From IMG/VR virus record IMGVR_UViG_3300024496_000012: a stretch of DNA of 64,000 nucleotides, one strand, 5' to 3'. A program made the translations under genes and the position numbers. This DNA is from a virus. The notes beneath the pieces are model-generated. The model saw nothing but the letters and a program-made list of their open reading frames with translations. It did no database searches and was not told where the DNA came from. Each line of letters opens with the position of its first letter. The stretch's first letter is position 1. Positions 46,702 through 64,000 of this stretch are shown here, in pieces.

Positions 46702-46715
46702 TATTAGACACGATT

Positions 46716-46745
46716 AAAAAGGGCGAATCGTACTCGCCCTTTTTC
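46716..46745 (+). terminator. Rho-independent (possibly bidirectional) terminator
   Basis: AAAAAGGGCGA-ATCGTAC-TCGCCCTTTTT. Confidence 0.88.
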
Positions 46746-46767
46746 TATGATCACTTAAAACAATGAC

Positions 46768-46775
46768 CATAAATA
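46768..46775 (+). promoter_or_regulatory. Late promoter box CATAAATA heading the halogenase/oxygenase operon
   Basis: Between the terminator and ATG 46802. Confidence 0.6.
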
Positions 46776-46801
46776 GTTGACGTTAAACAAAGGGTTTTCT
46801 C

Positions 46802-48418
46802 ATGAATATTAAAAAAGTCGTTATAGTTGGTGGAGGTTCATCTGGGTGGATGACCGCTGCGGCATTATCTAAACTATGTCCACACCTAGATATCACATTA
46901 ATAGAATCTGAAAAAGTAGGAACAGTCGGTGTAGGAGAAAGCACTTTAGGCCATATTAATAGATTTTTAAATATTCTAGAACTAAAAGACGAAGATTGGA
47001 TGGCAGCTTGTAATGCTACCTATAAGAACTCTATTCGTTTTACTAACTTTAGAGAAAAAGATGGTTCGTATTTTGAATATCCCTTTAGTGCAGGACTAGA
47101 TTTCACCGATAAACCTAGTGGGTCAAATGCATGGTCAGAACTAGCAACACTATATCCAGATGAATATGGTCCCGAACAGTTTGCTCAAATGTATGCGACT
47201 GGCAATACTTTCCTCGCCAAGTACAATCGTCAAACTAGAGACGAAGCTAGAGTTTTACGAAACTATGAGTTCAAGTGGGATACTGCTTATCATCTTGATG
47301 CACAGTTATTTGGTCAGTATCTAAAAGAAAAAATAGCATTGCCTAACGGTGTGAAGCATATGATCGGCGATGTACACTCCCACCAAAAAGATCATCTTGG
47401 CAATATCACACAGATCTTGTTGGCTGATTACACGACTACACTAACAGCTGACCTTTGGATTGATTGTACTGGTTTTAGAAGCATACTTCTAGAAAACTGG
47501 ATGGGTTCTCAGTTTATTAGTTTTGAAAAATATCTAGCTAACGACAGAGCATGGGCATGTCGCATTCCTTATGAAGATAGAGAGCGAGAAATGCACAATG
47601 TCACAGACTGTCATGCTCTTGATAACGGATGGGTATGGAATATTCCGTTATGGAATCGTATAGGTACTGGATATGTTTTTAGTTCGAGATTTATTTCGGA
47701 CGAAGATGCTAAAAGAGAGTTTCGCAGACACTTAGCTACTACAGGTTCTAAAGAACGTGCTGATCGAGCCGACATGTTCCTAGTTAATATTAAGCATGGA
47801 TATAGACGCCGAGCATGGGTAGGTAATGTTGTGGGCGTTGGTCTTAGCTATGGATTTGTTGAACCATTAGAGTCAACAGGACTTTTGACTACACATGAAA
47901 ACATCATTAAACTAATCGAAGCACTAAATCGAAGAGAAGGATATGTAACTAGATCCGAACGTGAAGGATTTAACTTTGCTGTACAACATGATGTTTTAAG
48001 ATTCCGTGACTTTGTTTCACAACATTATGCTCTATCTAAGAGAACAGACACCCCATATTGGAGATGGTGTACACAGATAAACGAATATTGCCCAGAAGGA
48101 ATGGGAGAGTTTATGTTACAGCAAGCCCAGTATCCAAATCTAATGGGCAATATTGCCATGGGCAATGCATATCCTAGCGACTATGTTGGTAATATGTTTA
48201 TTGCTGCTGGCATGGGAGTCAAATCAACATCAACTAAAGAACTTGTTTATGTAACCGGCAGAGTAAACCAAGTATCTAAGATGGAAGAAATCGGATATAC
48301 CAAGAGAAGGTACGAAGAATATAGAGATTTTGTCATTGATTATGTCAAGAAATGTCCAACGCACTATCAGTTCTTGTTACATGAAATCTATGGCGGAAAA
48401 GATGACTACGCTCTGTAA
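46802..48418 (+). CDS. Flavin-dependent halogenase family protein (PrnA/RebH-like) 1
   Basis: GGGSSG FAD motif, GVGESTL, catalytic-Lys motif NATYKNSIRF, GWVWNIP, GFVEPLESTG. Confidence 0.9.
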   Translation: MNIKKVVIVGGGSSGWMTAAALSKLCPHLDITLIESEKVGTVGVGESTLGHINRFLNILELKDEDWMAACNATYKNSIRFTNFREKDGSYFEYPFSAGLDFTDKPSGSNAWSELATLYPDEYGPEQFAQMYATGNTFLAKYNRQTRDEARVLRNYEFKWDTAYHLDAQLFGQYLKEKIALPNGVKHMIGDVHSHQKDHLGNITQILLADYTTTLTADLWIDCTGFRSILLENWMGSQFISFEKYLANDRAWACRIPYEDREREMHNVTDCHALDNGWVWNIPLWNRIGTGYVFSSRFISDEDAKREFRRHLATTGSKERADRADMFLVNIKHGYRRRAWVGNVVGVGLSYGFVEPLESTGLLTTHENIIKLIEALNRREGYVTRSEREGFNFAVQHDVLRFRDFVSQHYALSKRTDTPYWRWCTQINEYCPEGMGEFMLQQAQYPNLMGNIAMGNAYPSDYVGNMFIAAGMGVKSTSTKELVYVTGRVNQVSKMEEIGYTKRRYEEYRDFVIDYVKKCPTHYQFLLHEIYGGKDDYAL

Positions 48419-49196
48419 GAAACTGTTTGGCTGGTTAGGAAAAAATAAAAAAACAAAACCATACATAAGGTTTTATTCTTTAACTCCGGGTGTGGTAGAT
48501 TTATTTCCTATAGTTAGATCATCTACAGTAGAAAGACCGTATAGAAGTTCTCAGACCTACGAAGGTGTTCCTCCTAGCAAAAACTGTCCTGCTATCAATA
48601 AAATAGTGGGTTCTGGATGGATCGTGCCTGCGCCTGCTGATTTTATCATAGATACTAATGGTGACGGAACAACGATCCAGTGGCTGGAACCTTATCGTTT
48701 TAAAAGATCTTCTGATATCAATGAATCTTCTTATGTAGTATTACACAGTTGGCATCAAACTGATCCGTTAGTCGATGATCCTGAAAAAACTGTCAGGACC
48801 GTAGTAAAGCTCGAAACACCTTGGCGTGTTGATATGAGCGATGATTATGTACTACTCCAACTTCCTGTTACCTATAACAAAGAAAGCCGTTTCACAGCAG
48901 CTATTGGTGTGCTAGATCCAGAGTACGGATACACAGTAAATGTGCAACTATTTTGGAATGTCAAAGAAGGACGCACACTAGTCAAGGCAGGAACACCGTT
49001 ATGCCAACTAGTTCCAGTTCTTAAAGATGCGTTAAGTCCTGGTTTTTATGATGTCATTATAGATAATGCCACAGAACAAGACCAGCTCAAAGATAGAGAG
49101 TTTAACTATGCTGCTAGTTGTGTGATCTTAAATCACGATTCTCTAGGATCAAGATTGAGCAGATCGAAAAAAATACTTAATAAGTACAAAAAGTGA
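48402..49196 (+). CDS. Hypothetical beta-clip/dUTPase-like-fold protein, paralogue of 63029..63859
   Basis: Start reassigned to ATG 48402. RFYSL, CPAI, APADF, VK.ETPWRV, VQLFW and AGTPL.Q motifs shared with the paralogue. Confidence 0.65.
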   Translation: MTTLCKKLFGWLGKNKKTKPYIRFYSLTPGVVDLFPIVRSSTVERPYRSSQTYEGVPPSKNCPAINKIVGSGWIVPAPADFIIDTNGDGTTIQWLEPYRFKRSSDINESSYVVLHSWHQTDPLVDDPEKTVRTVVKLETPWRVDMSDDYVLLQLPVTYNKESRFTAAIGVLDPEYGYTVNVQLFWNVKEGRTLVKAGTPLCQLVPVLKDALSPGFYDVIIDNATEQDQLKDREFNYAASCVILNHDSLGSRLSRSKKILNKYKK

Positions 49197-49206
49197 GGAT
49201 ACAAAC

Positions 49207-49458
49207 ATGGACTATAAAACGTCATTACAAGCAACACTAACCAATGTTCAAAAACAAATCGAGGACGGTAAAGCTGAACTCAAAAGATTAGAAGAAGAGT
49301 TTGCCAATGTCAAACTAAATCCCTATGGAATCACTTCTATCGATTTCGCAAAACGTCAAGAACTCAGCACAGATGTTCTAAAGATGGAAGGTGTAGTCAT
49401 GGGACTTCGACTAGCTCTTGAAACCTATGACGGAGTAGAAGCAGGTGCAACTATCTAA
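49207..49458 (+). CDS. Small coiled-coil hypothetical protein
   Basis: 83 aa, GAGG SD. Confidence 0.65.
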   Translation: MDYKTSLQATLTNVQKQIEDGKAELKRLEEEFANVKLNPYGITSIDFAKRQELSTDVLKMEGVVMGLRLALETYDGVEAGATI

Positions 49459-50029
49459 TAATGGGGCGATACATCTATTTCCACCCCTAATATACAAGTT
49501 TGAATACGAGTTCGATCAATCATATCTTAAACCTAAGATTGATGATTTATTTTCATTGGTGGAAATAAATTCTGATCTAGAAAAAGGCGCTGCGATATCA
49601 ACAGTAAGTTTGGATCAGCGCCTTCAACCTCATACATGGCCTGAACTAGAACACTTCCAACACTGGTTGGGAGAAAAAATCGCTAACATCAGAGAAGAGC
49701 ATCAGTTTTATAACGGCTATTCTGAAGTACAACGTAGCTGGTGCAATCGACATCTACGATCCGGATACACTCTAGAACACAATCATACGTTCGCCACTTG
49801 GGTAGCCAGTTGTTATTTTATGGCACCTGCTGGCTCAGGCAATATAGAATTTTTAGATCCTCTTGAATATCACAAGAGTAACTTTCCTGTTGTCCCTGAA
49901 GTATCATTCTACAAAGAAGTCCAAGTAGCTACAAATAATGTTTTAATCTTTCCAGGTTGGATTAAACATAGAGTTCAGCCGAATAACACCGATCAGGAGC
50001 GTGTAGTAATCACGTTTAACATAAAATGA
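49445..50029 (+). CDS. 2OG-Fe(II) oxygenase (HxH...H type)
   Basis: EHNHTFATWVASCYF...FPGWIKHRV...RVVITFN. Confidence 0.85.
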   Translation: MQLSNNGAIHLFPPLIYKFEYEFDQSYLKPKIDDLFSLVEINSDLEKGAAISTVSLDQRLQPHTWPELEHFQHWLGEKIANIREEHQFYNGYSEVQRSWCNRHLRSGYTLEHNHTFATWVASCYFMAPAGSGNIEFLDPLEYHKSNFPVVPEVSFYKEVQVATNNVLIFPGWIKHRVQPNNTDQERVVITFNIK

Positions 50030-50829
50030 AAGATTTTAAAATCTGTTATCCTGATGCCAACACATTTAAAGACATCATCAAACTTAAAAAAATAGATGAC
50101 TGGAATGTGGAATACCATCATCTTTCTGATGATATTGGCTATTGGACGGCAGATCATCCTTTTGAAACTGACGAACAGTTTTATCTTTTTAGAGATCTCA
50201 TAGGAATGTTTCCTATACAGAAAGATAATAATCATCCAAAAAACTTTGATCCAAATCCTTTTGATACCATACATCTACCTGAATGGGTGTATTTAGATCT
50301 TTGTTTCTTAATAAGAGATTTTTATAAAATACACGGAACAGACGAGTGGCAAGATCCTCAGATACACGAATGGGGCAATATATTTCTAAGAGAACGCACC
50401 AGACCAATAAGCTGCTGGAGACTACCTCACATTGATTATGTGTTTGGGATGGTCTCTAACTTATGGTTCACTGATCACAAAATAGAAGATAGCTGTACAC
50501 GACTGTATAAGTATCATGGTAAGATCTACAACGATGTCTATGACTTTCAGTTAGACTTAGAGCATCCTATGAGAAAAGAATGGGAAGCACTATCACTTGA
50601 ACCAAAACGTCTCGATAGTTGGATGAACGTTCCTGAAGAAGAGCTGAAGAGATGGGGGTTTGAACTAGTAGGAATGGCCCCAACAAGAGAAAAAACTATG
50701 ACTTTGTACAAAGCTAATATATGTCACAGTGCTTGGGTGGGAGAAAATGTAGATTTTAGATGGAGTCATGCTTTTGCTTTTAGTCACGAACTACTACAAC
50801 ATAAGACGCTTAAGGATCTGTTTTCATGA
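50026..50829 (+). CDS. 2OG-Fe(II) oxygenase-like protein (HxD...H)
   Basis: WRLPHIDY...ICHSAW...RWSHAF. Confidence 0.65.
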   Translation: MKDFKICYPDANTFKDIIKLKKIDDWNVEYHHLSDDIGYWTADHPFETDEQFYLFRDLIGMFPIQKDNNHPKNFDPNPFDTIHLPEWVYLDLCFLIRDFYKIHGTDEWQDPQIHEWGNIFLRERTRPISCWRLPHIDYVFGMVSNLWFTDHKIEDSCTRLYKYHGKIYNDVYDFQLDLEHPMRKEWEALSLEPKRLDSWMNVPEEELKRWGFELVGMAPTREKTMTLYKANICHSAWVGENVDFRWSHAFAFSHELLQHKTLKDLFS

Positions 50830-51452
50830 ATCTAGAACTTTACTTTCCTACGCCCGTTTGGTGGGAGGACACCACCATCGATCCTGCACCAATGCTAGAG
50901 CTGTTAACAGAACTCAAAGAAAAAGATCCATACGGTCGCAGACTCAGCAACGAAGGAGGCTGGCAGAGTATGGATTTTAGACCCGGACTTTACCCTCAAA
51001 TGAAGGCACTTGAAGATAGATTAATGGAACAGGCTAGACAATGTGTCAGAGATTATGGATATAAAGAGAGCTTATGTTTTCCTTTAATCGAAAACTTCTG
51101 GTTTAATGTCAACGGAAAGCACCATACTAACATGGTACACACACATGATAATACGTTTATAGCAGGAGTATTTTACCTCAAGGCATATCCAGGACAAGGA
51201 AAAATAACTCTGTTTAAAGAGTATTCTCAGGATTATGTAATCGCTTCACAGGCGCCCATCGAACAATATAAACATATTAGTGCTAGTGCTATTAGTTTTG
51301 ATCCAGTAACTAGCAGACTTATTTTATTTCCTGGTGCATTGCCACACGGTGTAGGAGCAAACACTACCGACGAAGACAGGATATCTGTTTCGTTCAACAT
51401 AAAGATGATAAGAAATGACGATGAAAGAATTAGGATTCAGGTTATTGAATGA
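50826..51452 (+). CDS. 2OG-Fe(II) oxygenase (TIGR02466-like)
   Basis: VHTHDNTFIAGVFY...FPGALPHGV...DRISVSFN. Confidence 0.88.
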   Translation: MNLELYFPTPVWWEDTTIDPAPMLELLTELKEKDPYGRRLSNEGGWQSMDFRPGLYPQMKALEDRLMEQARQCVRDYGYKESLCFPLIENFWFNVNGKHHTNMVHTHDNTFIAGVFYLKAYPGQGKITLFKEYSQDYVIASQAPIEQYKHISASAISFDPVTSRLILFPGALPHGVGANTTDEDRISVSFNIKMIRNDDERIRIQVIE

Positions 51453-52158
51453 GACTAATCTTCTTTATGAAGATAAGCCTCATTATTTTAAAAATCTACT
51501 TCCAGAAGCTTCAGAAATGGTCACATGGAACGATGTGGAACATTGTTTTAATAGACCAGAGCTGTATAACTTTGAGATGATAGGCCCTGACAATCTTAAA
51601 ATCGAAATACCTATGAATAAAAAAGCATGGGTATTTTCTAAACCTGTACAAGACAAAGCCTTTATGTTTGAAAATATCAATAAAGGCAACGGATTTGTTA
51701 TCATGGACTACGCATTCTACAGTGAAAAAACTATAGAACTCATGCGTACATTAGAAAATATATACATGGTAAACTCTTGCATACACGTCTATGGCGGCTT
51801 AGAAGGTTCAAAAAGTTTTTGGATACACGAAGACTATCCTTCAAACTTCATATTCCAAGCATGGGGTAAAACTCGTTGGAAGGTGTTTAACAACAGGATT
51901 TCTACCATGTATCGAACAGGTACTATGAATCATCAGTTAACTGAAGATATGTTGGACCTAGCATTTGATGTGGTGCTAGAACCCGGAGATGCAATCTACA
52001 TTCCTTCTAGGATGTATCATATAGCGTACCCGATGGGTCCTAGATTAAGCATGAGCGTTCCTTGTTGGACAAAGTTACCTACTGACGAACCTAAAGAATC
52101 AAGTGATAGAAACTGGTATAAGATAAATCATGAAAGTATTCAAACCAATAACGATTGA
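51415..52158 (+). CDS. JmjC/cupin oxygenase (ycfD/ROX-like)
   Basis: SFWIHEDY...FQAWGKTRWKV...LEPGDAIYIPSRMYHIA. Confidence 0.85.
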   Translation: MTMKELGFRLLNETNLLYEDKPHYFKNLLPEASEMVTWNDVEHCFNRPELYNFEMIGPDNLKIEIPMNKKAWVFSKPVQDKAFMFENINKGNGFVIMDYAFYSEKTIELMRTLENIYMVNSCIHVYGGLEGSKSFWIHEDYPSNFIFQAWGKTRWKVFNNRISTMYRTGTMNHQLTEDMLDLAFDVVLEPGDAIYIPSRMYHIAYPMGPRLSMSVPCWTKLPTDEPKESSDRNWYKINHESIQTNND

Positions 52159-52720
52159 TAATCTTGTTGAAAAGCAATATCAAGATGAGATTTATAGACA
52201 TCTAACTGATGTAAAGTTCCCTTGGGCGTTTATGGCCGATGCCACAGATGAGTTTGGGCATAATAACTCTGCGTTAAACGGACCCACGCCGTCTTTTGGT
52301 CACTTGGCGTATTGGAATCAACGAGATGAAAATCCATCTATTGATTTTTACAATCCACTGTTAACTGCTATACAGGAAAAATTCAATATACAGATGACCG
52401 GTCTGTTAAGGATACGGGTGGGTTTTCTATTAAACACATCATATTCTTTACCTAGTATGCCGTATCGTCATAATAAACCCCACCAAGATTATGATCAAGA
52501 TCATTTTACCTTAGTCTACTACGTCAATGATACAGACGGTGACACTGTTATTTTCCATGAAACTAGACCTTCTGAAAAATATTATTCACTAGAAAAATGC
52601 AGTCCAAAGAAAGGACGGGCAATATTATTTGACGGCAGACATTTCCATGCCAGCACATGTCCTAAGATGTTTACTACTAGGATAGCTATAACTATTAACT
52701 TTCAAGGCTTGCCGCAATGA
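52130..52720 (+). CDS. 2OG-Fe(II) oxygenase
   Basis: KPHQDY...LVYYVNDTDGDT...FDGRHFHAS...RIAITINF. Confidence 0.85.
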   Translation: MKVFKPITIDNLVEKQYQDEIYRHLTDVKFPWAFMADATDEFGHNNSALNGPTPSFGHLAYWNQRDENPSIDFYNPLLTAIQEKFNIQMTGLLRIRVGFLLNTSYSLPSMPYRHNKPHQDYDQDHFTLVYYVNDTDGDTVIFHETRPSEKYYSLEKCSPKKGRAILFDGRHFHASTCPKMFTTRIAITINFQGLPQ

Positions 52721-53424
52721 GTAAAGATCATGTCGATTATCTAATGCGTATGCAGAAAAAAAGTGCTGCAGATATAAGAGAAGGTGACCTAAAAAATAGA
52801 TTCCTTTATCCTTTCTTTCCTACTATAGTTATAGATAACTTCTACGAAGACCCAGATTTGATTCGAGAGTTTGCTCTTGATCAAGAGTTCTTTAAAGGCA
52901 ATAGAGGTAGTTGGCCAGGGCTGCGTACAAAACTGTTACACGAACTAGATACTAATATGTTTAAGTTTGTCTCTAGAAAACTAATGTTCACTCTACGTGA
53001 ATATGGAATAAGAGATTACGAAGAAATACAGATAGGATTCCAGTTAATCGACGAAAGCTACGGCAGGGGTTGGGTGCATGACGATGATCCTAAGCTACAC
53101 GTAGCAGGTGTAGTTTATCTTAATAAGGATGCAGGCGAAAACTGCGGAACTACTATCTTTGAAGATGCTCCTGACTTTAATGGTGAAGAATACAGTGAAA
53201 TGTTTATGAAAGATGTATTATTATCTACACCAGAAGAACGTGCCGCTATGTCTAAGTATAGAGAGGAACAAATAAATTATTTTAATCCTACAATAAAAAT
53301 AGAAAGTATTTATAACAGGATGGTTATGTTTGACAGTCGATGCTGGCATGCCGCAGATTACTTTTTTGGAACCGATAAAGAAAGTTCTAGATTAAATCAA
53401 ATACATTTTTTGAGATTGAGATGA
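52717..53424 (+). CDS. 2OG-Fe(II) oxygenase-like protein
   Basis: DNFYEDPD.IR, WPGLRT, GWVHDDD...AGVVYL...CWHAAD...RLNQ. Confidence 0.8.
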   Translation: MSKDHVDYLMRMQKKSAADIREGDLKNRFLYPFFPTIVIDNFYEDPDLIREFALDQEFFKGNRGSWPGLRTKLLHELDTNMFKFVSRKLMFTLREYGIRDYEEIQIGFQLIDESYGRGWVHDDDPKLHVAGVVYLNKDAGENCGTTIFEDAPDFNGEEYSEMFMKDVLLSTPEERAAMSKYREEQINYFNPTIKIESIYNRMVMFDSRCWHAADYFFGTDKESSRLNQIHFLRLR

Positions 53425-54035
53425 TTAGAACAGTGAGACAACCCTTTAAGATAGTTGATGATTTTTTTGAATGTCCTGATCTGTGGAGATACCATGCTCT
53501 TAAGCAAGAATATACTACAGATGAACAAGCAACATGGCCTGGCGTAAGATCTACGGTTCTCGATCAGATCAATGAAACTCTTTTTCATTCGCTGGCATCA
53601 AAAATAATCGTGCATTGTCCAGGAAAAAGGTACTTCCATTATCTTAAAATCAACTATGCCCTAGTTGATGAAAGTTACAATCTAGGTTGGTGTCATGTCG
53701 ATGAACCAAAATATAATGTAGCTGGAGTTATATTTTTAAATCCCGATCCTCCCAAAAACAGTGGAACAATATTTTATAAAAAAACAAAAGAAATGATGAT
53801 TGATTTTAATCAATTATTTTTTAACGAGTTAAAGGCTGCTCCGGAAGATCGAAAAGATTTTTATAAACACAAGCTAGAACAACGAAGTCATTTTAAAAAA
53901 TCAATGACTGTAGAAAATGTCTATAATAGATGTGTCATATTTCCGCCAGACGAGTGGCATAGCGCAGACAGTTATTTTGGCAATGACAAAGACAGTGCTA
54001 GACTAACAATTAACTTTTTTGGATTTGCTGCATGA
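53421..54035 (+). CDS. 2OG-Fe(II) oxygenase-like protein, paralogue of 52717
   Basis: WPGVRS, GWCHVDE...AGVIFL...EWHSAD...RLTINFF. Confidence 0.8.
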   Translation: MIRTVRQPFKIVDDFFECPDLWRYHALKQEYTTDEQATWPGVRSTVLDQINETLFHSLASKIIVHCPGKRYFHYLKINYALVDESYNLGWCHVDEPKYNVAGVIFLNPDPPKNSGTIFYKKTKEMMIDFNQLFFNELKAAPEDRKDFYKHKLEQRSHFKKSMTVENVYNRCVIFPPDEWHSADSYFGNDKDSARLTINFFGFAA

Positions 54036-54649
54036 CAGCCATGTTTGGGTCATTTGCCAACTACGGATTTATCAAAGATACACTTCCGAGTCAGTTATTT
54101 GCTGATTTAAAAAGTGAAATAGATTCTATTGATTTTGAAAACAGTGAAAAATTTAATCAGCATCTTGCAGGAAATATAAAGTTCGAGTTCAAGCTAGATA
54201 AAAACAAAAAATCTCTAGAAGAATATGTGGTATCGCTCTGTAAGCAATACAAAGAAGCTTGGGATTTGAGACATACTAGAAAAGATCTTGGTAATGAAAA
54301 TCTAGAGCTACAGAGCTATTGGGTTAACTTTCAACGCAAAAACGAGTTTAATCCTATGCACACTCACGATGGCCTGTTTAGTTTCGCTATATGGGTCAAG
54401 GTTCCTTATAGATTCCAAGATGAACTACAAGAAAGCCATGTTAGAAATACCAACATGCCCAGGGCAGGAATGTTTTCTTTCATATATACAAACATATTCG
54501 GAGAAGTAAGAGAAGCAGAGTTTCCTGTAGACAGCACATTCGAAGGACAAATATTTTTATTTCCTAGCTGTTTACCACATACAGTTTACCCTTTCAGCAC
54601 TTCAGACGAATATAGAATATCAATATCAGGAAACATACATGCCAAGTGA
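54032..54649 (+). CDS. 2OG-Fe(II) oxygenase (HxH...H type)
   Basis: PMHTHDGLFSFAIW...LPHTVYPF...RISISGN. Confidence 0.85.
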   Translation: MTAMFGSFANYGFIKDTLPSQLFADLKSEIDSIDFENSEKFNQHLAGNIKFEFKLDKNKKSLEEYVVSLCKQYKEAWDLRHTRKDLGNENLELQSYWVNFQRKNEFNPMHTHDGLFSFAIWVKVPYRFQDELQESHVRNTNMPRAGMFSFIYTNIFGEVREAEFPVDSTFEGQIFLFPSCLPHTVYPFSTSDEYRISISGNIHAK

Positions 54650-55810: not shown

Positions 55811-56448
55811 TGGAAGATTATAAGATCATAAAAAATGCAGTTTCTAAAGAGCTCTGTGATTTTCTAGCACTAGAGTTTTCTATGATGGAAACTACCTGTA
55901 GGCAACTATATCCTAATGCCAACCTTGCTGATCTTTGCGAAGGTACATTTGCTAGATATAGTCCTTTGATGTTTGAAGCACTGAGTGTACATCTAACACC
56001 TTTATTGGAAAAAGAAGTAGGAAAAAAGCTATGGCCTACCTATAGTTATGCTCGCATTTACTATAAAGGAACAGAGCTACAGCGTCATTTTGATAGACCT
56101 AGTTCAGAAGTAACAGTATCAGTATGTATACAACCTGGCGAAGTTTCTTGGCCTATATACATCAAGAACGAGCAAGGCACTGTACACGAGATTCATCTAG
56201 ATCAAGGAGATCTAGTAATCTACAGCGGTAGGAGACATGAACACTGGAGAGAGCCATATACAGGCGAAAAGCAGATTCAGGCTTTTCTGCAATATGTGGA
56301 TGCTGAAGGGGAAAGTTCCTGGTTGAAATGGGATACAAGACCTTGTTTAGGGCTACCGTTCGAGTGGACCAACCAGGAAATCCAGAACGAACTAAGACGT
56401 ATTTCTGACGCTAAATCTTTTTTAGATAGGGTTATTCAACCCAAGTAG
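55807..56448 (+). CDS. 2OG-Fe(II) oxygenase (prolyl-hydroxylase-like)
   Basis: YARIYYKGTELQRHFDRPSSEVTVSV...GDLVIYSG...HWRE...FLQYVD. Confidence 0.85.
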   Translation: MMEDYKIIKNAVSKELCDFLALEFSMMETTCRQLYPNANLADLCEGTFARYSPLMFEALSVHLTPLLEKEVGKKLWPTYSYARIYYKGTELQRHFDRPSSEVTVSVCIQPGEVSWPIYIKNEQGTVHEIHLDQGDLVIYSGRRHEHWREPYTGEKQIQAFLQYVDAEGESSWLKWDTRPCLGLPFEWTNQEIQNELRRISDAKSFLDRVIQPK

Positions 56449-56641
56449 CATCTTTAGGTACGACTTTTTCTTCTAGCGGACCCATTGGACCTGCAACAAC
56501 GTGTCTCGTTCCTGCATTTTGCTCAAACTTTTGCGAAGCGGCAGTTCTAGTATCTGCCTTTGTGTAGACTTCAAAAACGTGTAGAGCATGAGTTTCCGGA
56601 TTTTCTTCATCTCGGTAAATCATTTTGTAAATTGCCATCAT
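56432..56641 (-). CDS. Small hypothetical protein (69 aa)
   Basis: AGGAG SD, and CATAAATA box at 56663-56656 overlapping the upstream stop. Confidence 0.7.
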   Translation of the reverse strand: MMAIYKMIYRDEENPETHALHVFEVYTKADTRTAASQKFEQNAGTRHVVAGPMGPLEEKVVPKDATWVE

Positions 56642-56658
56642 AATCTCCTATACAATAT

Positions 56659-58218
56659 TTATGCGGTATGTTGTATCCATTCCTCAATAGACCAGCACTG
56701 ATCTACGAGGTTTTTATATCTTTGCAGATTAATATTTAGTACTTTTTCACCCGATGAAAGCAAGTTTTCAGGTACTCTAGCAGAGTCTGCTACTCTAAAC
56801 TTATCTATTCCTTGGATCACCATCATCCAAGCTACAGGACTGTAAGCTCTAGGCCACGGTTCAGCGATCAAACCTTTATAAAACTGTTCCCATTCTTCCA
56901 GCTTAACTCTAAGGCTATCTCGTGTCCTATGTGGTTCTTCTCTAAATCTACGCCAGAACTCGGTATCGTTTCTATTACCATGATAATGAAGTGCGATAAA
57001 GTCGGCAAAATCTTCAGTCAAGAACCATATTTTATCATTCATGCGTTGTACTACTTCGGGGTTAGTATTCTTCCTTAAAGGATCCCAATAGTCTTGTACT
57101 GCATACAAGGTTTCGACTATAAGTGCTATTCCGTTGGCTTCTAATGGTTCAACAAACCCACTGCTAAGACCAATAGCGAATACATTGTTTTTCCATACAT
57201 TTCTCATCGCACCTGGTTGATATTTTAGATTTGCTATAACATCTATTTTTTTATTAAATCTTTTTTCAGCTTCTTGGTGAGCTTGTTCTTTGCTGATAAG
57301 ATCCGGATCAAAAATGTATCCGTTGCCAGATCGATGCTTGAGATTTATATTCCAAGACCAGCCATATTCCATAGCTGTAGCATTAGTGGTTACACAATAA
57401 CAGGGTTCGTCCCACCAACCAATCACTTCTCTTTGAGGAAAAGTATCAGTCATATCCACTAATGGTTCTTTTAAAACTTTTCCTAATAATAATCTTGCAA
57501 ATCCAGAACAATCGAAAAACCAATCACCAGTTACTTCTCTATCTCCGTCGAGTTTTAACGAAACGATATTTCCTCTTTCATCTTGTGAAGCTGAAAGAAA
57601 CTCTCCTTCTATGTGATTAACACCACGTGATAATGCTGTCTTTTTAAAATATGCAGCCGAATCTCGAGATTCAAAATGCCACATAGGTATGCAAGGCAAA
57701 GAAGTTAGATCACCGCCGAAAGGAACTTTCTGCTGTCTAATAAACTCTCCTGCAAAAAACGCTTTCCATAACGGTGTATTGTTTCCTAAAAGTGTTTTTA
57801 GGTACATGTTCTTGGCGCTTTCTTGCTTCATTATGTCTGACAGTTTGCGCATAGTAAGAGCGTCTAGCGGATTTGAGCCGATGTGATCAGTCCAACCGTC
57901 GAGCCAAGGTGCAAAATCAGTCTGCATAGCATGTATAAACTCTGTACCTACACCGTTCCAGTCAGTGAACTTACCGCCCATCTTGGGAGTAGCATTTACA
58001 TTTTTAATAAAATCATCGTCATCTATTTGCAAATGACGCAAGAATGTTCGATGTGTAGTGCTGCCACTTTCCCCTGCAATAATAGGAGGACGCTTAGGAT
58101 CTTCTATCAACGATACGTCGCAACGTGGCCAGTTTCGTTTTATAAAAAGAGCTGTGAGCCAACCTGCGCTACCACCGCCTAAGATGATTATCTTAGAACT
58201 TGTATTGTACATTATCAT
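56659..58218 (-). CDS. Flavin-dependent halogenase family protein 2
   Basis: GGGSAG, AGESGS, NATPKMGGKF, GWSWNINL, GFVEPLEANG. Confidence 0.88.
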   Translation of the reverse strand: MIMYNTSSKIIILGGGSAGWLTALFIKRNWPRCDVSLIEDPKRPPIIAGESGSTTHRTFLRHLQIDDDDFIKNVNATPKMGGKFTDWNGVGTEFIHAMQTDFAPWLDGWTDHIGSNPLDALTMRKLSDIMKQESAKNMYLKTLLGNNTPLWKAFFAGEFIRQQKVPFGGDLTSLPCIPMWHFESRDSAAYFKKTALSRGVNHIEGEFLSASQDERGNIVSLKLDGDREVTGDWFFDCSGFARLLLGKVLKEPLVDMTDTFPQREVIGWWDEPCYCVTTNATAMEYGWSWNINLKHRSGNGYIFDPDLISKEQAHQEAEKRFNKKIDVIANLKYQPGAMRNVWKNNVFAIGLSSGFVEPLEANGIALIVETLYAVQDYWDPLRKNTNPEVVQRMNDKIWFLTEDFADFIALHYHGNRNDTEFWRRFREEPHRTRDSLRVKLEEWEQFYKGLIAEPWPRAYSPVAWMMVIQGIDKFRVADSARVPENLLSSGEKVLNINLQRYKNLVDQCWSIEEWIQHTA

Positions 58219-59701
58219 TCCTTTGTTTTATCATTTCGATAGCTTCTCTATGAGTATAGAATGTAGCATTTTGATCGTGCCATTTATCACCTTCGAATAA
58301 TTCCTTTTGAATAACAGTATCATATCTATTTTTCATATGTTCAGACCATTTTTTATTCAAGGATTCAGTGTCAAACATACCAAGTCCGTGCATTACCTGC
58401 ATAAAGTTTAAATGTCTAAACAGGAGCATTTCACTTTGAAAATAGTGAGTATGTACACCATGCTTTTTAAAGAATGACATATTCTCCCGATTAAAATCAG
58501 TGTACTTGATATTGTTATTAACCCACTGCCAAAACTCACTGTCGTTTCTCTTTGTAAAATAATGTAGCTGTATGAAATCGACTATGTTTTCTGCTATTTC
58601 AGACATCTGCTTATTATAGATCTCTTCAGCATGTGTATCGCCTTTCACATAATAATATAAACTGGGCAAGAGTAGGAAAGTCTGTTGGATAGTGGTACCC
58701 ATACTAGATGCTTCTAGTGGTTCTACAAATATCCCACTAAGCCCAGTCATTACACAGTTTTTTATCCAAAACTTTTCGACATGACCTGCACCAAACTTTA
58801 TCTTTTTTCCTATTTCTATGTTGTCTGAGATTCCTAGTTGTTTATAGTGTTGGCTAACCTCATCATAGGCTTTAGTTTCGTCAATAAAACTATCACAGAA
58901 AACATAACCGTTGCCAAACCTATCCTGGGTAGGAATACGCCATACCCACCCACTGCTCAGTGCCGTAGATTCTGTATAAGAAGGAATATGTTCTTGGTAT
59001 GCTGTAGGAAATGCCAGCGCAGAATTTAATGGTAGCTGATCAGTCTTATCTAGCCATTTGGCATCTAACTTGCTACCAATAATTCTTCTAAATCCTGAGC
59101 AATCAATAAAAAAATCAGCAGAATGTCTTTGACCATCGTTGCCGACGAGTTCGCTGACATATCCTTGTTCGTCTAAAACTACATCGTCAATCTTAGTATC
59201 AACTAGTTCTATTCCGCGTTCAGCGCACAGATCATGGAAATATTTGTTTAGTTTAAATGTATCAAAATGATACTGAGCTAGACTGTCATGCAATGGTTCG
59301 GAATGCATACTGTTCATGCTTTTTTTATAAACAGTGTCTAAAGGATCAAAGTTTTCAGCGATTAGCTTTTCCAGAGTATACGGAATGCCATTGAATCTAC
59401 TGTGGGTTCCAAACTGCTCTGCCAGACTATGGAAATAATGCTTGCCATCTCCGTTCCAGTTTGTAAACTTGATACCTATTTTAAAAGTTGCACCGGTATT
59501 GCGCATCATATCAAACACAGATATGTCTGCCTGTTTCATGAATCTTTTCCAATGCTCGGTACTGCCTTCTCCAACGCCAATGATTCCTAGTGCAGATGAT
59601 TCAATCATAGTGATTTTTAAATCAGGCCAACCGCTCTTCAGCATCAGGGCACTAATAAGACCGCTGGTTCCACCGCCTAAAATTATTAAAGATTTTATCA
59701 T
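58193..59701 (-). CDS. Flavin-dependent halogenase family protein 3
   Basis: GGGTSG, GVGEGST, GATFKIGIKF, GWVWRIP, IFVEPLEASS. Confidence 0.9.
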   Translation of the reverse strand: MIKSLIILGGGTSGLISALMLKSGWPDLKITMIESSALGIIGVGEGSTEHWKRFMKQADISVFDMMRNTGATFKIGIKFTNWNGDGKHYFHSLAEQFGTHSRFNGIPYTLEKLIAENFDPLDTVYKKSMNSMHSEPLHDSLAQYHFDTFKLNKYFHDLCAERGIELVDTKIDDVVLDEQGYVSELVGNDGQRHSADFFIDCSGFRRIIGSKLDAKWLDKTDQLPLNSALAFPTAYQEHIPSYTESTALSSGWVWRIPTQDRFGNGYVFCDSFIDETKAYDEVSQHYKQLGISDNIEIGKKIKFGAGHVEKFWIKNCVMTGLSGIFVEPLEASSMGTTIQQTFLLLPSLYYYVKGDTHAEEIYNKQMSEIAENIVDFIQLHYFTKRNDSEFWQWVNNNIKYTDFNRENMSFFKKHGVHTHYFQSEMLLFRHLNFMQVMHGLGMFDTESLNKKWSEHMKNRYDTVIQKELFEGDKWHDQNATFYTHREAIEMIKQRNDNVQYKF

Positions 59702-61197
59702 AGTTTATATTCCACCGTATTGCTGACCATCGCTTTGACTTTATTTACAGCTTCTCTACAGGTCAGCCAACCTTCTGTAGGTGTATTCTCGAATCTAGAT
59801 AGATATTCTTCGTCGTCTTTTCTCAGGTATCCGTATCTTTTTTCGAATAGATTTTTTATACTAGCGGTGTCAAACATGCGTAGACCGTGCATGACCTGTA
59901 TCCAGTTTAGGCAATCATAGATCCTAAAGTTACTCATAAGACCGTCTTCAGGTAACAGTATTTGATTAACAAAGTTTTTCTTAAAGTTTTCTAGATTTTC
60001 TTTGTGAAAATCAGTCATGGTCATTTCATTTTTGCACCAGCGCCAGAACTCTGTGTCATTGCGTTCGGTGAAATAGTGCAGTTGTATAAAATCGAGTATG
60101 TTTGACATCATATCGTCGACTGTGTGATTATATTCTTTTATGCTAGACTGATCTTCTCGGGTCCAGTTCCATAGTGCGCCTGATAATAGTTGCAGTTGTT
60201 TTATGGTCGTAGATATACTAGAAGCTTCTAACGGCTCTACAAAGTTGCTGCTAAGACCTATGCTCACGCAGTTTTTAATCCATGCACGATTGACCTTACC
60301 TGATTTAAAGTTAATCTTGCGGCCTATCTTGATGGTATCCTTGAAGTGTTTTTGTATTTCAGACACTGCTTGGTCTTCAGTAATAAAATGATCGCTGAAA
60401 ACATAACCGTTACCAAAACGATCCTGCACAGGACTACGCCAATGCCAACCGCTGTTCATGGCTTTAGCGAGGGTGTAGGGGGGAATCTTTTCTTCATAGG
60501 ACGTCTGGAAAGCTATAGCAGAGTTCAATGGCAGGTATTTGCTCCAGTCGATCCATTCTGCTCCTAGGTCAGATGCTATAACTCTGTTGAATCCACTGCT
60601 GTCTATGAAAAAATCAGCAGCATATCTATTACCTTGATCGTCAATCACAGACTCAACAAAGCCTTGTTGATCTAATATCGGTCCTTTGATTTCTGCATCT
60701 ATGACTTTTATTCCCGAGATAGCACAACGATCTCGCAGATAGTTATTGAGTTTTTCACTGTCAAAGTGGAACTGATAATAATCTGTCAGAGGTTCTCTGA
60801 CATATCCTTGCATGGGAAGATCCCAATGCAAGTTTTCGCTGGAAACTCCGTCGCCTATGAGTCTCATCATAGAGTAAGCAGCACCTGAGTATCTATTCAT
60901 ATTGATTAAGTACTCAGGTAGACTATGATAATAGCTGGTACCGTCACCATGCCAGTTTTCAAACTTAATGCCTACTTTTATTGTAGCTCCGCAGTGTACC
61001 ATTAGATCGCCTATGGTGATTCCCACAGCCTGAGCGAATCTAGTCCAGTGTTCAGTACTGCCTTCGCCGACGCCGATAGTACCTATCTTTTTAGACTTGA
61101 TAACAGTGATATCCATCTCAGGAAATGAACTCTTGAGATATAATGCCGACATGTATCCGGCGTTTCCGCCTCCTAGTACAATAATATCATTGATCAT
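59698..61197 (-). CDS. Flavin-dependent halogenase family protein 4
   Basis: GGGNAG, GVGEGST, GATIKVGIKF, GWHWRSP, NFVEPLEASS. Confidence 0.9.
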   Translation of the reverse strand: MINDIIVLGGGNAGYMSALYLKSSFPEMDITVIKSKKIGTIGVGEGSTEHWTRFAQAVGITIGDLMVHCGATIKVGIKFENWHGDGTSYYHSLPEYLINMNRYSGAAYSMMRLIGDGVSSENLHWDLPMQGYVREPLTDYYQFHFDSEKLNNYLRDRCAISGIKVIDAEIKGPILDQQGFVESVIDDQGNRYAADFFIDSSGFNRVIASDLGAEWIDWSKYLPLNSAIAFQTSYEEKIPPYTLAKAMNSGWHWRSPVQDRFGNGYVFSDHFITEDQAVSEIQKHFKDTIKIGRKINFKSGKVNRAWIKNCVSIGLSSNFVEPLEASSISTTIKQLQLLSGALWNWTREDQSSIKEYNHTVDDMMSNILDFIQLHYFTERNDTEFWRWCKNEMTMTDFHKENLENFKKNFVNQILLPEDGLMSNFRIYDCLNWIQVMHGLRMFDTASIKNLFEKRYGYLRKDDEEYLSRFENTPTEGWLTCREAVNKVKAMVSNTVEYKL

Positions 61198-61802
61198 TAT
61201 TTTATGTCCAAGGTGATTTTCGAATCAGTAGCAAGATTATGATTGATCCGACCACTAGGAAATGTGTTAAAACTTATAATATATCGATCGTTGCTCAGTA
61301 TGTGAGGCTCGCTCATATGATACAGCCAGCTAGGAAAAACTATTAACTTTCCTGGAGTGGCCACAGACCTATACCAAGGACTAAAATCATGTCTTAGTAC
61401 TTCAAGTTCTGATTCAGTCCTATGCACTTCAGGATCTTCAAAGATAGTTGCGCTGCCTTCGGTCATGTAATAGACCGCACTGAACATGCTCATAGAATGT
61501 TTATGATAGTTTTGATACATGTTGTAACCGCTGAGTGCGACGTTGAACCAACTGTTTGTTATCACTATCTTGTCGCAGTCAAATTTCTGTGCCACACGTA
61601 TTTCTTCTAGGCATGCATCGAACCAATCAAACAGTTCTTTGAAATCTGCTTCTTTACGTAGATCGTATAGGATACTAATCGTGGTGGTTCTTTTTATTTC
61701 AGTGCCATTAAGCACTTTCATCTTTTCGATAAGGGCCTGATTATCGATAGATTTGTTTTCAAAAACGAAAACTTCTGTAGGAAAAAGCTGTAGTGTCTGC
61801 AT
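61197..61802 (-). CDS. 2OG-Fe(II) oxygenase (TIGR02466-like)
   Basis: YHKHSMSMFSAVYY...FPSWLYHMS...RYIISFN. Confidence 0.87.
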   Translation of the reverse strand: MQTLQLFPTEVFVFENKSIDNQALIEKMKVLNGTEIKRTTTISILYDLRKEADFKELFDWFDACLEEIRVAQKFDCDKIVITNSWFNVALSGYNMYQNYHKHSMSMFSAVYYMTEGSATIFEDPEVHRTESELEVLRHDFSPWYRSVATPGKLIVFPSWLYHMSEPHILSNDRYIISFNTFPSGRINHNLATDSKITLDIK

Positions 61803-62393
61803 TTATAGTTCAATCCAACCAGTGAGTAGATATTTTTCGCCGCTCAATGGTGGATTGCCTCTGTGTGTATGGGTGAAAGCCGCTGGCCATATGACTAGAT
61901 TTCCCTGTATGCTAGGTATCCTAATGCCTTGATACAGCCATTCTGTTTCGCCACCTTGATCTACAGTGTTTAGATAGCACCCCCAGGCAGCTATTCTGCC
62001 GGCACGATCCATGTTATCAGATTCAAAATGCCATTGATGATACCCTTCTCCGGGAAGAGTTTTTTGTAGCTTTATCATGCGTATGTGAAAATGTCCAACG
62101 TCATCTAAGATACTGTAATGTGATACGTACTCGCTCCAACAGGCCCATAGTCTATCAACAAAATACTTGATATAACCTGTATTTGCTGTTAGTCTTAGAC
62201 TGTTTTCCTCTAAAAGAAAACTAGCTTTATCTTTTTTCTTATGTGCTATTCCGTCTCGAAGATCTAACCTGCTGTAACTGAGATTAAGATCTGCCATTCG
62301 ATTATAATGATCGATGAGAGTTTGGCATTCTTCAGCTGTCAGAACGCCCTCGAATGTAGCTATATCTTTTTCCAGTTTCATAGGTATTGTCAT
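61803..62393 (-). CDS. 2OG-Fe(II) oxygenase (prolyl 4-hydroxylase-like)
   Basis: YHQWHFES...YLNTVDQGGETEW...WPAAFTHTHRGNPP...KYLLTGW. Confidence 0.9.
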   Translation of the reverse strand: MTIPMKLEKDIATFEGVLTAEECQTLIDHYNRMADLNLSYSRLDLRDGIAHKKKDKASFLLEENSLRLTANTGYIKYFVDRLWACWSEYVSHYSILDDVGHFHIRMIKLQKTLPGEGYHQWHFESDNMDRAGRIAAWGCYLNTVDQGGETEWLYQGIRIPSIQGNLVIWPAAFTHTHRGNPPLSGEKYLLTGWIEL

Positions 62394-62438
62394 CGTACAG
62401 TACTATATATCTAAGCAGATTATTACAAGAGACTTATA

Positions 62439-63032
62439 ATGAATGTAGAAAAATCAATATGGCCGCTGTTTTCAAAACCAGTTTTTAGGACCGGAGTAGA
62501 TGTATCGGGTGTGGATTTAACCAGCATAGAATGGTTGCCAAACTACAATAACTGGATCAGTAAAGATCAAAATGTACTAGAAAAACCCGAGTTTGAAAAA
62601 CTAGCTCAAGGAGTATACGACGGAATCTGCGAATACTTTTATGGTGTTATGCGAGCCAATCAACGTATAGAGATCGCTATCACTGAAAGTTGGTTTAATA
62701 AAACAGAAAAAGGTCAAATACATCACAGACATTATCATCCCAACAGTGTGTTTTCTACAGTGCTTTATCTGCAAACTGAAGGGGAATCGGGTCAGACTAA
62801 GTTTATAACCAGCGAATACCAGTTACTGGAGTATGACATTGACGAATCCAACATCTATAACTCAAAGAGTTGGAGCCTTACACCTAAAGTCGGAGAAATG
62901 TTGATATTTCCTAGCAGCATGGAACATATGGTCACTGAATATCAAGGAAACGTTCCTCGTATTAGTCTGGCTGTAAACACTTTTATCAAAGGGCAGATCA
63001 ACACCATGCCCTTGACCAAACTACATCTTTAA
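62439..63032 (+). CDS. 2OG-Fe(II) oxygenase (TIGR02466-like)
   Basis: HRHYHPNSVFSTVLY...FPSSMEHMV...RISLAVN. Confidence 0.88.
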   Translation: MNVEKSIWPLFSKPVFRTGVDVSGVDLTSIEWLPNYNNWISKDQNVLEKPEFEKLAQGVYDGICEYFYGVMRANQRIEIAITESWFNKTEKGQIHHRHYHPNSVFSTVLYLQTEGESGQTKFITSEYQLLEYDIDESNIYNSKSWSLTPKVGEMLIFPSSMEHMVTEYQGNVPRISLAVNTFIKGQINTMPLTKLHL

Positions 63033-63859
63033 ATCTTATTTTTAGGATATTTTTTACGGAAGAAACTAAACAGATCCGTAATCACACGCATCTTATTTCC
63101 TACACTGTCTGATCTAGGAAATCTACTGTGATTAGAAAAAGTATAGGCATCTTCTATTTCTTCCTCGACTGGTCCTGCAACATCAACAATAAAATCTACA
63201 CCGTTTTGTTCTACTAGTTTTCTGCTAATAGGGACATATTGTACCAATGGAGTTCCGGCGCGAATCAGTGTATCGCCTTCTAGCACATGCCAAAACAGTT
63301 GTACGCTTACGGCATGCATGTACCTAGGATCAACGATTCCTGTAGCTGCTGTAAATCTAGCTTCGTTGTCATAACTAACAGGAATCTGCAATAGTAAAAT
63401 GTCATCGCTGGCCTTTACACGCCATGGAGTTTCTACTTTTACAGCACTGTGTAGATGGGGGCGATCTGTGTTAGGTATTTCTTTAGGTATTAATGGTTCT
63501 GTCTGTGCAGGACTATGCCAGCTTACATAATAATCAGTGCCGCCGAATGTATATTTGTCACTGTGCCGCTTAAACAAGAAAGGAGTTTCCCAGCTTAGGT
63601 GTTCGATGCTAGGACCTGTTTTGATGACAAAATCTGCTGGAGCCCTAAGAACATACCCAGTTCTAGTTAGCTGCTTGATAGCCGGGCAGTTTAACACCGT
63701 TTGACGCCCTTGTTCTGGGCGGTTTCTTTCGGTATTTCCTAGCCCATTCCAATCTCTGTCTACTAGTTTAGACTGTGTGACTGGGTAGATCGCAGCAACA
63801 TTCTGATCTAGACTATAGAATCTTACCCAGCTTTTTTTCTTTTTAAACAGATTAAACAT
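63029..63859 (-). CDS. Hypothetical beta-clip/dUTPase-like-fold protein, paralogue of 48402..49196
   Basis: Start reassigned to ATG 63859 (MFNLFKKKKSWVRFYSL) by alignment with the paralogue and an upstream CGTAAATA box. Confidence 0.65.
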   Translation of the reverse strand: MFNLFKKKKSWVRFYSLDQNVAAIYPVTQSKLVDRDWNGLGNTERNRPEQGRQTVLNCPAIKQLTRTGYVLRAPADFVIKTGPSIEHLSWETPFLFKRHSDKYTFGGTDYYVSWHSPAQTEPLIPKEIPNTDRPHLHSAVKVETPWRVKASDDILLLQIPVSYDNEARFTAATGIVDPRYMHAVSVQLFWHVLEGDTLIRAGTPLVQYVPISRKLVEQNGVDFIVDVAGPVEEEIEDAYTFSNHSRFPRSDSVGNKMRVITDLFSFFRKKYPKNKI

Positions 63860-63864
63860 ATGGA

Positions 63865-63923
63865 TATTTACGCTTAAAAGGAGCTGATAACGCAGGTTCT
63901 GAAAAATTTCAAACTGATAAATA
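63865..63923. promoter_or_regulatory. Divergent late-type boxes
   Basis: CGTAAATA 63872-63865 on - (5 nt before ATG 63859) and GATAAATA 63916-63923 on +. Confidence 0.5.
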
Positions 63924-63947
63924 ATAGGACGAGGACCATGTATAGCT

Positions 63948-64000
63948 ATGTCTACCAACAACTTTAACAGCATCAGATTACTTCCTAACTATGATATAAC
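63948..64000 (+). CDS. Probable 5' end of the next gene (truncated)
   Basis: ATG 63948 is open to the window end (MSTNNFNSIRLLPNYDI), downstream of a late box and GAGGA. Confidence 0.4.
   Translation, partial: MSTNNFNSIRLLPNYDI

Follow-up and report, generated by a model that had tools for sequence, protein, structure and literature searches.

Few viruses in surface waters are as abundant as the cyanomyoviruses, and their many 2-oxoglutarate (2OG) oxygenases and PrnA/VirX1-type halogenases have been without an assigned substrate since they were first noticed between 2005 and 2010. Iyer, Abhiman, de Souza and Aravind described a dioxygenase-halogenase cluster of cyanophage Syn9 in 2010, the dUTPase-fold gene included, with a tandem array of ten dioxygenases from five or more families, among them the MINA/NO66-like gp49, and they proposed that the cluster yields halogenated peptide-derived secondary metabolites (PMC2938197). 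VirX1 of cyanophage Syn10 (PDB 6qgm), which is of biotechnological interest as an iodinating enzyme, is an active iodinase and brominase. In our study we analysed a stretch of viral DNA of 64,000 nucleotides (nt), IMG/VR record IMGVR_UViG_3300024496_000012, which we call the window, and in it an island of 22 genes (g01 to g22, 46802-63859) that codes for four halogenases, 14 proteins of 2OG/Fe(II)-oxygenase type, two dUTPase-fold paralogues and two small proteins. It is nearly certain that this island is an enlarged member of the Syn9-type cluster and not a new kind of system. What we add is the observation that VirX1-clade halogenases, gp40-like genes and genes for glycine-rich fibre-tip-like proteins have a near-identical distribution among phages (20, 20 and 19 shared records).

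The window stems from a river-water T4-like cyanomyovirus (Kyanoviridae-like). Many public contigs, the longest of 218 kb, carry the same DNA, and by their run records they stem from riverine samples; the phage collection held no near-identical relative, and an exact-pattern scan of viral contigs for the end of the window gave no match. The plus-strand operon g01-g14 (46802-56448) corresponds almost gene for gene to Syn9 gp42-gp54 and to S-CREM1 ORF69-80, and more loosely to genes of S-RIM44 and P-TIM40, with identities of 35-60% across these four phages. In a BLAST comparison run in one direction, from the relatives to the window, each Syn9 gene from gp42 to gp54 had its best match in the island at 28-56% identity and in nearly the same order. 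Moreover, each window oxygenase finds its own counterpart at 35-55% identity, and the oxygenase paralogues within the window are only 23-36% identical or not detectably alike. Therefore, the oxygenases are separately conserved components and not recent duplicates. The operon is tightly packed, with overlaps of 4-38 nt between neighbours and a single gap of 10 nt. The 3' end of its last gene, g14, overlaps that of a unit on the opposite strand, g20-g15 (62393 down to 56432), which is followed by g21 on the plus and g22 on the minus strand. An earlier first-pass annotation, made from the letters alone, had listed 14 oxygenases and four halogenases in this operon layout, and open reading frames, Pfam, hhalign, fold and motifs confirm this list.

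Directly upstream of the island lie three tandem glycine-rich, fibre-tip-like paralogues (43422-46018, plus strand; Pfam Gly_rich_2 and composition) with 23-24% Gly, 4-5% His and 4-6% Tyr, whose relatives are annotated as 'tail fiber assembly'. They are followed by a gene for a gp40-like protein of 220 amino acids (phrog_1787; 46039-46701, plus strand) with a conserved tryptophan and a W-x-RYPGW-GY motif. Among 50,697 phage records the gp40-like protein was found in 20, which are exactly the 20 with the best matches to the VirX1-clade halogenase, and in all of them the gp40-like gene stands directly 5' of that halogenase, with abutting coordinates. Homologues of the Gly-rich paralogues occur in 20 records as well, 19 of which also hold a VirX1-clade halogenase, always just downstream. 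The order fibre, Gly-rich, gp40-like, halogenase and oxygenase genes is common to Syn9, S-CREM1, S-RIM44, P-TIM40 and S-WAM1. The placement after the fibre module, already noted in the first-pass annotation, is real and is kept in six genus-level lineages (five by annotated regions, others by coordinates). In Syn9 and S-CREM1 a late-type box precedes the gp40-like gene, and the halogenases then follow without a gap or a box of their own. Therefore, the enzymes appear to be co-transcribed with a gene of the fibre module.

The regulatory signals of the window were read directly. Behind the gp40-like gene there is an intrinsic-terminator-like hairpin (46716-46744) with an A-run, a GGGCGA stem, a 7-nt loop, TCGCCC and a T-run; the stem spans 46721-46739 and the T-run extends to 46744. 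The box CATAAATA follows at 46768-46775 on the plus strand, 27 nt 5' of the ATG of g01, so that the terminator and the box that had been reported to head the plus-strand operon are both where they were said to be. The box has the form NATAAATA, which is the late-promoter motif defined for cyanomyoviruses (PMC2984593). The number of ATAAATA copies in the window is not enriched (13 found, 18 expected). Their placement is: ten of the 13 stand ahead of a gene on its own coding strand, in most cases no more than 100 nt from the start, and the eleventh, at 63917, stands likewise ahead of a gene starting at 63948. So little of the window is non-coding that chance can hardly account for this placement. 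The genes headed in this way include the giant fibre gene, the gp40-like gene (box at 46027-46033), g01 and the small minus-strand gene g15, which has its own exact ATAAATA at 56662-56656 on the minus strand, in the 17-nt gap after the third halogenase. Two giant genes of 2896 and 3259 amino acids (about 11% Gly and 5.5% Tyr) occupy 23783-42302, 5' of the Gly-rich paralogues, and both have a late-type box or lie within a late-type run.

Taking these observations together, we propose, at a probability of roughly one in three, that the enzymes of the island modify a protein or peptide and that the co-inherited fibre-tip or gp40-like proteins are the leading candidate substrates. The enzymes would be made late, together with the virion proteins, and hydroxylases and halogenases would act in series on a protein or peptide and not on a free metabolite. 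As targets we would consider first the products of the genes immediately upstream, namely the fibre-tip paralogues, which are rich in Gly, His and Tyr, and the gp40-like protein with its Trp residues. The halogenases would use host-reduced flavin and halide on aromatic side chains, and each oxygenase would hydroxylate a different residue or site with 2OG and O2. Several observations on the enzymes themselves point in this direction: the JmjC protein g07 has its closest solved relatives in NO66, MINA53 and YcfD, which hydroxylate ribosomal proteins, g05 has OGFOD1 as its best structural match, and one representative of the g14 family is fused to a PqqD domain. Besides, the large open active site described for VirX1 accepts bulky substrates, and a 2OG oxygenase has been found in purified virions of cyanophage S-SCSM2R; this virion-associated oxygenase was not found among the relatives of g05. 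The first-pass annotation had suggested a virion-decoration system, and the late-type promoter, the position at the fibre genes and the closeness of the JmjC protein to protein hydroxylases all fit this suggestion. It is one of several readings that fit, and we regard it as plausible and unproven, with the same rough one-in-three chance.

Four proteins of the island belong to the Pfam family Trp_halogenase (g01, g16, g17 and g18; E 1e-86 to 1e-106). The flavin-dependent halogenase g01 (46802-48418, plus strand; Pfam E 3e-106) matches VirX1 in the PDB over its full length (residues 2-532, E 5e-200) and is 56-61% identical to Syn9 gp42 and S-CREM1 ORF69; judged by its sequence, it is a VirX1 orthologue. 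The other three, g16, g17 and g18 (56659-58218, 58193-59701 and 59698-61197, minus strand), are of P-SSM2 or BrvH-like type. They are 28-46% identical to each other and 37% identical to P-SSM2 PrnA, with 6frl as the best solved match. All four carry GxGxxG and the F-V-E-P-L-E stretch, and WxWxIP is intact in g01 and g17 and reads W-S-W-N-I-N in g16 and W-H-W-R-S-P in g18. In g16-g18 a lysine stands in a G-I/G-K-F stretch; we take this column to be the position of Lys79 of PrnA/RebH, the alignment itself containing neither a PrnA nor a RebH sequence. The same column holds an arginine in g01, VirX1, Syn9 gp41 and gp42 and S-CREM1, and a lysine four residues before it is invariant in all seven aligned halogenases. 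The reading of g01 as a decayed halogenase was rejected, as the experimentally active VirX1 carries the same A-T-Y-K-N-S-I-R-F stretch, which is also identical in Syn9 gp42 and S-CREM1. Therefore, the arginine in this column appears to be a trait of the clade and not a sign of decay. The VirX1 literature names a 'K79' in this enzyme.

Common to g01 and VirX1 are the full-length alignment, GxGxxG, WxWxIP, the Glu of the FxxPxxSxG stretch and the ATYKNSIRF stretch. However, g01 is about 56% identical to VirX1 and thus an orthologue rather than the same enzyme. VirX1 is a trimer, its large open active site takes bulky substrates, it halogenates many small aromatic compounds in vitro, and kinetics have been reported with 6-azaindole, a purine-like heterocycle.

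The closest companion of the VirX1-type halogenase is a gene of g02 type, which overlaps or directly follows it in 14 of 14 phage records. In the window g02 (48390-49196, plus strand, 268 amino acids) has its true start at 48390 and overlaps the end of g01 by 29 nt. Its 37%-identical paralogue g22 (63029-63859, minus strand, 276 amino acids, phrog_7084) was borne out as a called gene on public contigs and is not adjacent to a halogenase. Both had been called 'beta-clip-like', and for g02 this label is supported. A model with a predicted local distance difference test (pLDDT) score of 87 has the dUTPase/dCTP-deaminase fold, and two independent structure searches agree: Foldseek retrieves dUTPases and dCTP deaminases (E 3e-5), and VIA-align gives Z 9.9 with a root-mean-square deviation of 5.2 Å over 135 residues, its top 22 rows consisting of dUTPases, dCTP deaminases and viral proteins with the same fold. 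There are hundreds of unannotated homologues of g02. Cys66 is invariant in the 34 homologues aligned and matches the 'conserved cysteine' that Iyer et al. reported for the Syn9 dUTPase-fold protein (PMC2938197). In the alignment we assigned by eye a motif-III-like G-I-L-D-P-x-Y-G with an invariant Asp and a motif-IV-like Gln. Thus g02 and g22 share with trimeric dUTPases and dCTP deaminases the core fold, and the motif-III-like Asp is a further likeness. They differ from trimeric dUTPases in that g02 has no detectable sequence similarity to them (its sequence profile found no solved dUTPase) and no apparent motif V, the P-loop-like C-terminus; instead it has an extra N-terminal segment, a C-terminal helical hairpin and the invariant Cys.

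These features bear on the possibility that the dUTPase-fold protein binds a nucleotide-like ligand, which the halogenase and some of the oxygenases would then convert into a modified base or nucleoside-type compound. Such nucleotide or nucleobase tailoring would agree with the secure dUTPase/dCTP-deaminase-like fold, the retained motif-III-like stretch with its invariant Asp, the constant adjacency to the VirX1-type gene and with the kinetics reported for VirX1 on purine-like 6-azaindole. We nevertheless consider it distinctly improbable: apart from the failure of the g02 profile to find a solved dUTPase and the helical hairpin in place of motif V, dUTPase-fold proteins of viruses are often non-enzymatic, as in the herpesvirus tegument proteins, no window oxygenase matched a TET/JBP- or AlkB-type family in Pfam, and a late promoter would be badly timed for changing the nucleotide pool that replication draws on. 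By analogy with the dUTPase-related proteins of herpesviruses, g02 and g22 may have a non-enzymatic role. Since VirX1 and dUTPases are alike in being trimers, the VirX1-type halogenase may form a complex with the dUTPase-fold protein.

The first-pass annotation further claimed at least five oxygenase subfamilies with intact metal ligands. By inspection, the pattern HxD, HxE or, in the Oxy_5 group, HxH, followed by a distant H and a distal Arg or Lys, is present in 14 of 14 proteins, and metal triad and basic residue are invariant in five family alignments. A Pfam family was matched by 11 of the 14, ten of them above the curated cut-off. These are the 2OG-FeII_Oxy_5 proteins g04 (49445-50029, orthologue of Syn9 gp45), g06 (50826-51452, gp48; also TIGR02466) and g11 (54032-54649) on the plus strand, g19 at the head of the minus operon (61197-62393, together with g20) and g21 (62439-63032, plus strand); the 2OG-FeII_Oxy_3 proteins g08 (52130-52720, plus strand, gp51) and g20 (HxE); the JmjC_2 protein g07 (51415-52158, plus strand, gp49); and the DUF6445 proteins g09 and g10 (52717-54035, plus strand, both gp52 orthologues and 36% identical to each other). 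The plus-strand gene g12 (54639-55244, gp53) matches Oxy_5 and Oxy_3 below the cut-off, and g13 (55241-55810, plus strand, gp47; phrog_2696, weakly phrog_81) is linked to the Oxy_5 group of g06 by hhalign (E 1e-6). NCBIfam gave TIGR02466 for g06, a sub-threshold FlmC-type match for g08 and nothing else, and the solved structures nearest to g06, 3bvc and 2rg4, are of unknown function. Compared by sequence with solved structures, g05, g14, the Oxy_3 group and the gp40-like group gave nothing meaningful. With Oxy_5/TIGR02466, Oxy_3, DUF6445 (including the gp46-like proteins), JmjC and gp54-like proteins there are five to six families in all. The statement of 14 oxygenases in at least five subfamilies stands, and g14 is its least certain member.

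The Syn9 gp46 orthologue g05 (50026-50829, plus strand) was assigned by fold. Its model has a pLDDT of 94, and the Foldseek matches listed are almost all 2OG/Fe(II) oxygenases, with the prolyl hydroxylase OGFOD1 as the best one and 3bvc and the natural-product tailoring enzymes SnoN/SnoK, AndA, EvdMO1 and HygX among them. The residues H135-x-D137, H234 and R245 are invariant in 33 homologues. Deeper hhalign alignments of g05 and g14 against the Oxy_5 and Oxy_3 groups remained weak (E about 0.03), with the distal His and Arg of g05 in register. For g14 (55807-56448, plus strand), the orthologue of Syn9 gp54, H94-x-D96, H146 and R148 are conserved, the profile links by hhalign are weak (E 2e-3 to 1e-2) and the language-model neighbours are labelled as 2OG dioxygenases. 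Iyer et al. classed gp54 as a 2OG dioxygenase (PMC2938197), and from motif and profile links g14 is probably a 2OG oxygenase too. Its family comprises about 4100 representative clusters at E <= 0.001. In a Pfam scan of 31 diverse representatives some had the g14-type domain fused to a second 2OG domain (Oxy_3 or Oxy_5) or, in one protein, to a PqqD peptide-recognition domain (fusion proteins P0375, P0404, P0474, P0479 and P0504). These fusions suggest joint action and hint weakly at peptide substrates. The g14 domain itself is left unclassified by the Pfam 2OG matches, because all of them fell on the second, fused domain. In the relatives, the RefSeq/PHROG labels 'minor coat protein' (g05 type), 'ferrochelatase' (g14 type) and 'DNA endonuclease V' sit on 2OG oxygenases, as a comparison of g05-, g09-, g08/g12- and g14-type genes showed (loci L002, L007, L008 and L009). 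These labels look like propagated mis-annotations, the 2OG assignment resting on the family, the fold or a motif.

With reference to Weigele et al. 2007, Sullivan et al. 2010 proposed for cyanomyoviruses, in which 2OG oxygenases are widespread, metabolic or repair roles, namely a drawdown or sensing of 2OG tied to nitrogen-stress signalling, or an AlkB-like DNA repair. For the island described here we hold such roles to be very improbable. Consumption of 2OG does not need 14 distinct enzymes that are kept as orthologous groups across genera, the AlkB family was not matched by any window oxygenase (a single remote homologue of g14 carries PF13532), and halogenases as well as fibre linkage would be left unexplained.

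The JmjC protein g07 is 54% identical to Syn9 gp49. Its profile finds in the PDB the ribosomal oxygenases NO66 (E 1.5e-11), MINA53 (2e-7) and YcfD (7e-7). The g07 group matches the catalytic JmjC core of these enzymes (NO66, MINA53, YcfD/RoxA; JmjC_2) with HxD...H kept, whereas g07 is a bare, minimal catalytic domain of 247 amino acids, compared with 373-467 in the ribosomal oxygenases, and lacks their dimerisation and winged-helix domains. OGFOD1, the best structural match of g05, also hydroxylates a ribosomal protein. Both relationships would be expected if the oxygenases hydroxylated ribosomal, translation or other proteins of the host late in infection and the halogenases had a separate role, and similar suggestions were made in the papers on S-CREM1 and S-SCSM1. 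We judge this modification of host proteins to be improbable, since g07 is without the C-terminal dimerisation and winged-helix domains of the ribosomal oxygenases, a late promoter would be an odd time to retune translation, and neither the halogenases nor the dUTPase-fold partner nor the fibre linkage is accounted for.

The published proposal for Syn9 is the tailoring of a secondary metabolite, in which an amino-acid- or peptide-derived molecule supplied by the host is halogenated and hydroxylated in successive steps to a halogenated bioactive compound. In bacterial neighbourhoods, JmjC proteins, 2OG dioxygenases and Trp halogenases are joined with peptide synthetases and TonB receptors (PMC2938197). 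Within the island each oxygenase forms a conserved orthologous group of its own, as the enzymes of a pathway with several steps would, many structural matches of g05 are natural-product tailoring enzymes, and VirX1 acts on many small aromatics in vitro. However, as the first-pass annotation had recognised, Pfam and NCBIfam matched no non-ribosomal peptide synthetase, polyketide synthase, cyclase, transporter or flavin-reductase family among the 22 island proteins. The island and its flanking genes contain no scaffold enzyme and no carrier protein, and neither an exporter nor a hypervariable peptide of precursor type. Picocyanobacterial hosts are not known as a source of a suitable scaffold. 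Late-type promoters and the embedding among virion genes would also be unusual for a metabolic pathway, and the co-inheritance with gp40-like and Gly-rich fibre genes is left unexplained. Taken together, we consider this metabolite tailoring unlikely.

The two small genes of the island were considered as precursors of ribosomally synthesised and post-translationally modified peptides and rejected. The plus-strand gene g03 (49207-49458, 83 amino acids), an orthologue of Syn9 gp44, has no family match and is about 50% identical over 60 amino acids to Syn9 gp44 and S-CREM1 ORF71; it is a conserved small protein and not a hypervariable core. The other one, g15 (56432-56641, minus strand, 69 amino acids), has no family match and no detectable relative among the loci compared.

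Several points weigh against the modification of a fibre-tip or gp40-like protein. No modified virion protein has been reported, and the virion proteomes considered here did not look for such modifications. The fibre proteins lack collagen-like G-X-Y repeats, the targets of prolyl hydroxylases. Protein modification does not explain why the halogenase should constantly be accompanied by a protein with a nucleotide-binding fold. The term 'protein hydroxylase' rests mainly on the JmjC member, because Oxy_5/TIGR02466, DUF6445 and the gp54-like proteins have no characterised member. The minus operon g20-g16 has no exact late box at its head, nor have g21 and g22, and therefore the label 'late' holds for the plus operon and g15 only. 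Contigs of four river metatranscriptome libraries cover all of 44100-64000 at about 100% identity, DNA carry-over being possible and no timing information being contained in them. Shared distribution and adjacency may reflect mere vertical inheritance of one block in related genera. Moreover, in T4-like cyanophages accessory genes are known to gather behind the fibre genes, so that the position alone is weak evidence. The linkage of such clusters to structural modules holds for the six lineages and the 19-20 shared records, but it is not universal, as cyanophage S-B64 has a 38%-identical halogenase among replication genes without a gp40-like or Gly-rich neighbour. In this S-B64 region (locus L010, 939-10524) genes of replication and recombination (uvsY, helicase, gp46/gp47, gp55) are interspersed with the halogenase and several 2OG oxygenases.

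A more specific form of the protein-modification proposal would combine the fibre tip, the gp40-like protein, the halogenase with its dUTPase-fold partner and the dioxygenases into one late system, by which side chains of the receptor-binding fibre tip, or of its chaperone, would become halogenated and hydroxylated; we regard this as possible, if somewhat doubtful. If true, this would be the first case of a structural protein of a virus being halogenated by an enzyme, and it would also tell what VirX1 acts on in nature. The enlarged enzyme set would then match an unusually large fibre set, which comprises three Gly-rich paralogues and giant proteins to the left and right of the island. Beyond g22 follow a gene for 273 amino acids from 63948, a giant gene for 2122 amino acids and T4 gp15, on sequence that continues past the end of the window (locus L003, 1-9912, reverse orientation); the first two have no Pfam match. 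The island is thus bracketed on both sides by giant, presumably structural genes.

The contigs from the RNA libraries also show details of the locus. In two runs they end at 46687 and 46721, and in two other runs they bridge the terminator/promoter site; the breaks at this site are a weak hint. In two runs the contigs contain joints that go back by 727 and 436 nt among the Gly-rich paralogues (44100-45191), which are probably assembly cross-joins between near-identical repeats and not real rearrangements. Some contigs diverge at 52132-52676 and 53183 with unlike continuations, and these loose ends around g08 and g09 suggest co-occurring strain variants.

With regard to the claim that the substrates of these enzymes appear undescribed, our analysis agrees, but the cluster itself is not new, as its Syn9 version was published by Iyer et al. 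(PMC2938197). The comparison with cultured relatives narrows the search for substrates and names concrete proteins for the culturable phages Syn9, Syn10 and S-CREM1. The question of the targets of VirX1 and of the cyanophage oxygenases can be tested in these relatives, and the window is not needed to pose it. The window contributes one of the largest versions of the cluster, from freshwater.

Compared with the clusters of Syn9 and Syn10, the island shares the VirX1-type halogenase, the dUTPase-fold protein with its Cys, the small protein and the tandem 2OG array with a JmjC member, and here as there the cluster sits after the fibre, Gly-rich and gp40-like genes. In contrast to Syn9, the window phage lacks a second halogenase of gp41 type, has the extra copies g10 and g11 in its plus operon, and adds, in a converging operon on the minus strand, two oxygenases and three halogenases of P-SSM2 type, as well as one more oxygenase and a free-standing second dUTPase-fold paralogue. 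In total, this amounts to four halogenases and 14 oxygenases, compared with two and ten in Syn9. Between the gp40-like gene and the halogenase the window phage has a terminator and a second late box, and it comes from river water and not from the sea. For S-CREM1 and S-SCSM1, too, large sets of 2OG oxygenases (10 and 24 genes, respectively) are on record, their functions being 'not specifically investigated'. As in the window phage, many divergent 2OG oxygenases (pfam13759, pfam13640) are found there in one T4-like cyanophage. The set of S-CREM1 is the orthologous operon, whereas in S-SCSM1 the genes are spread over the genome and no halogenase was reported; in the window phage 14 oxygenases stand in one 17-kb island together with four halogenases.

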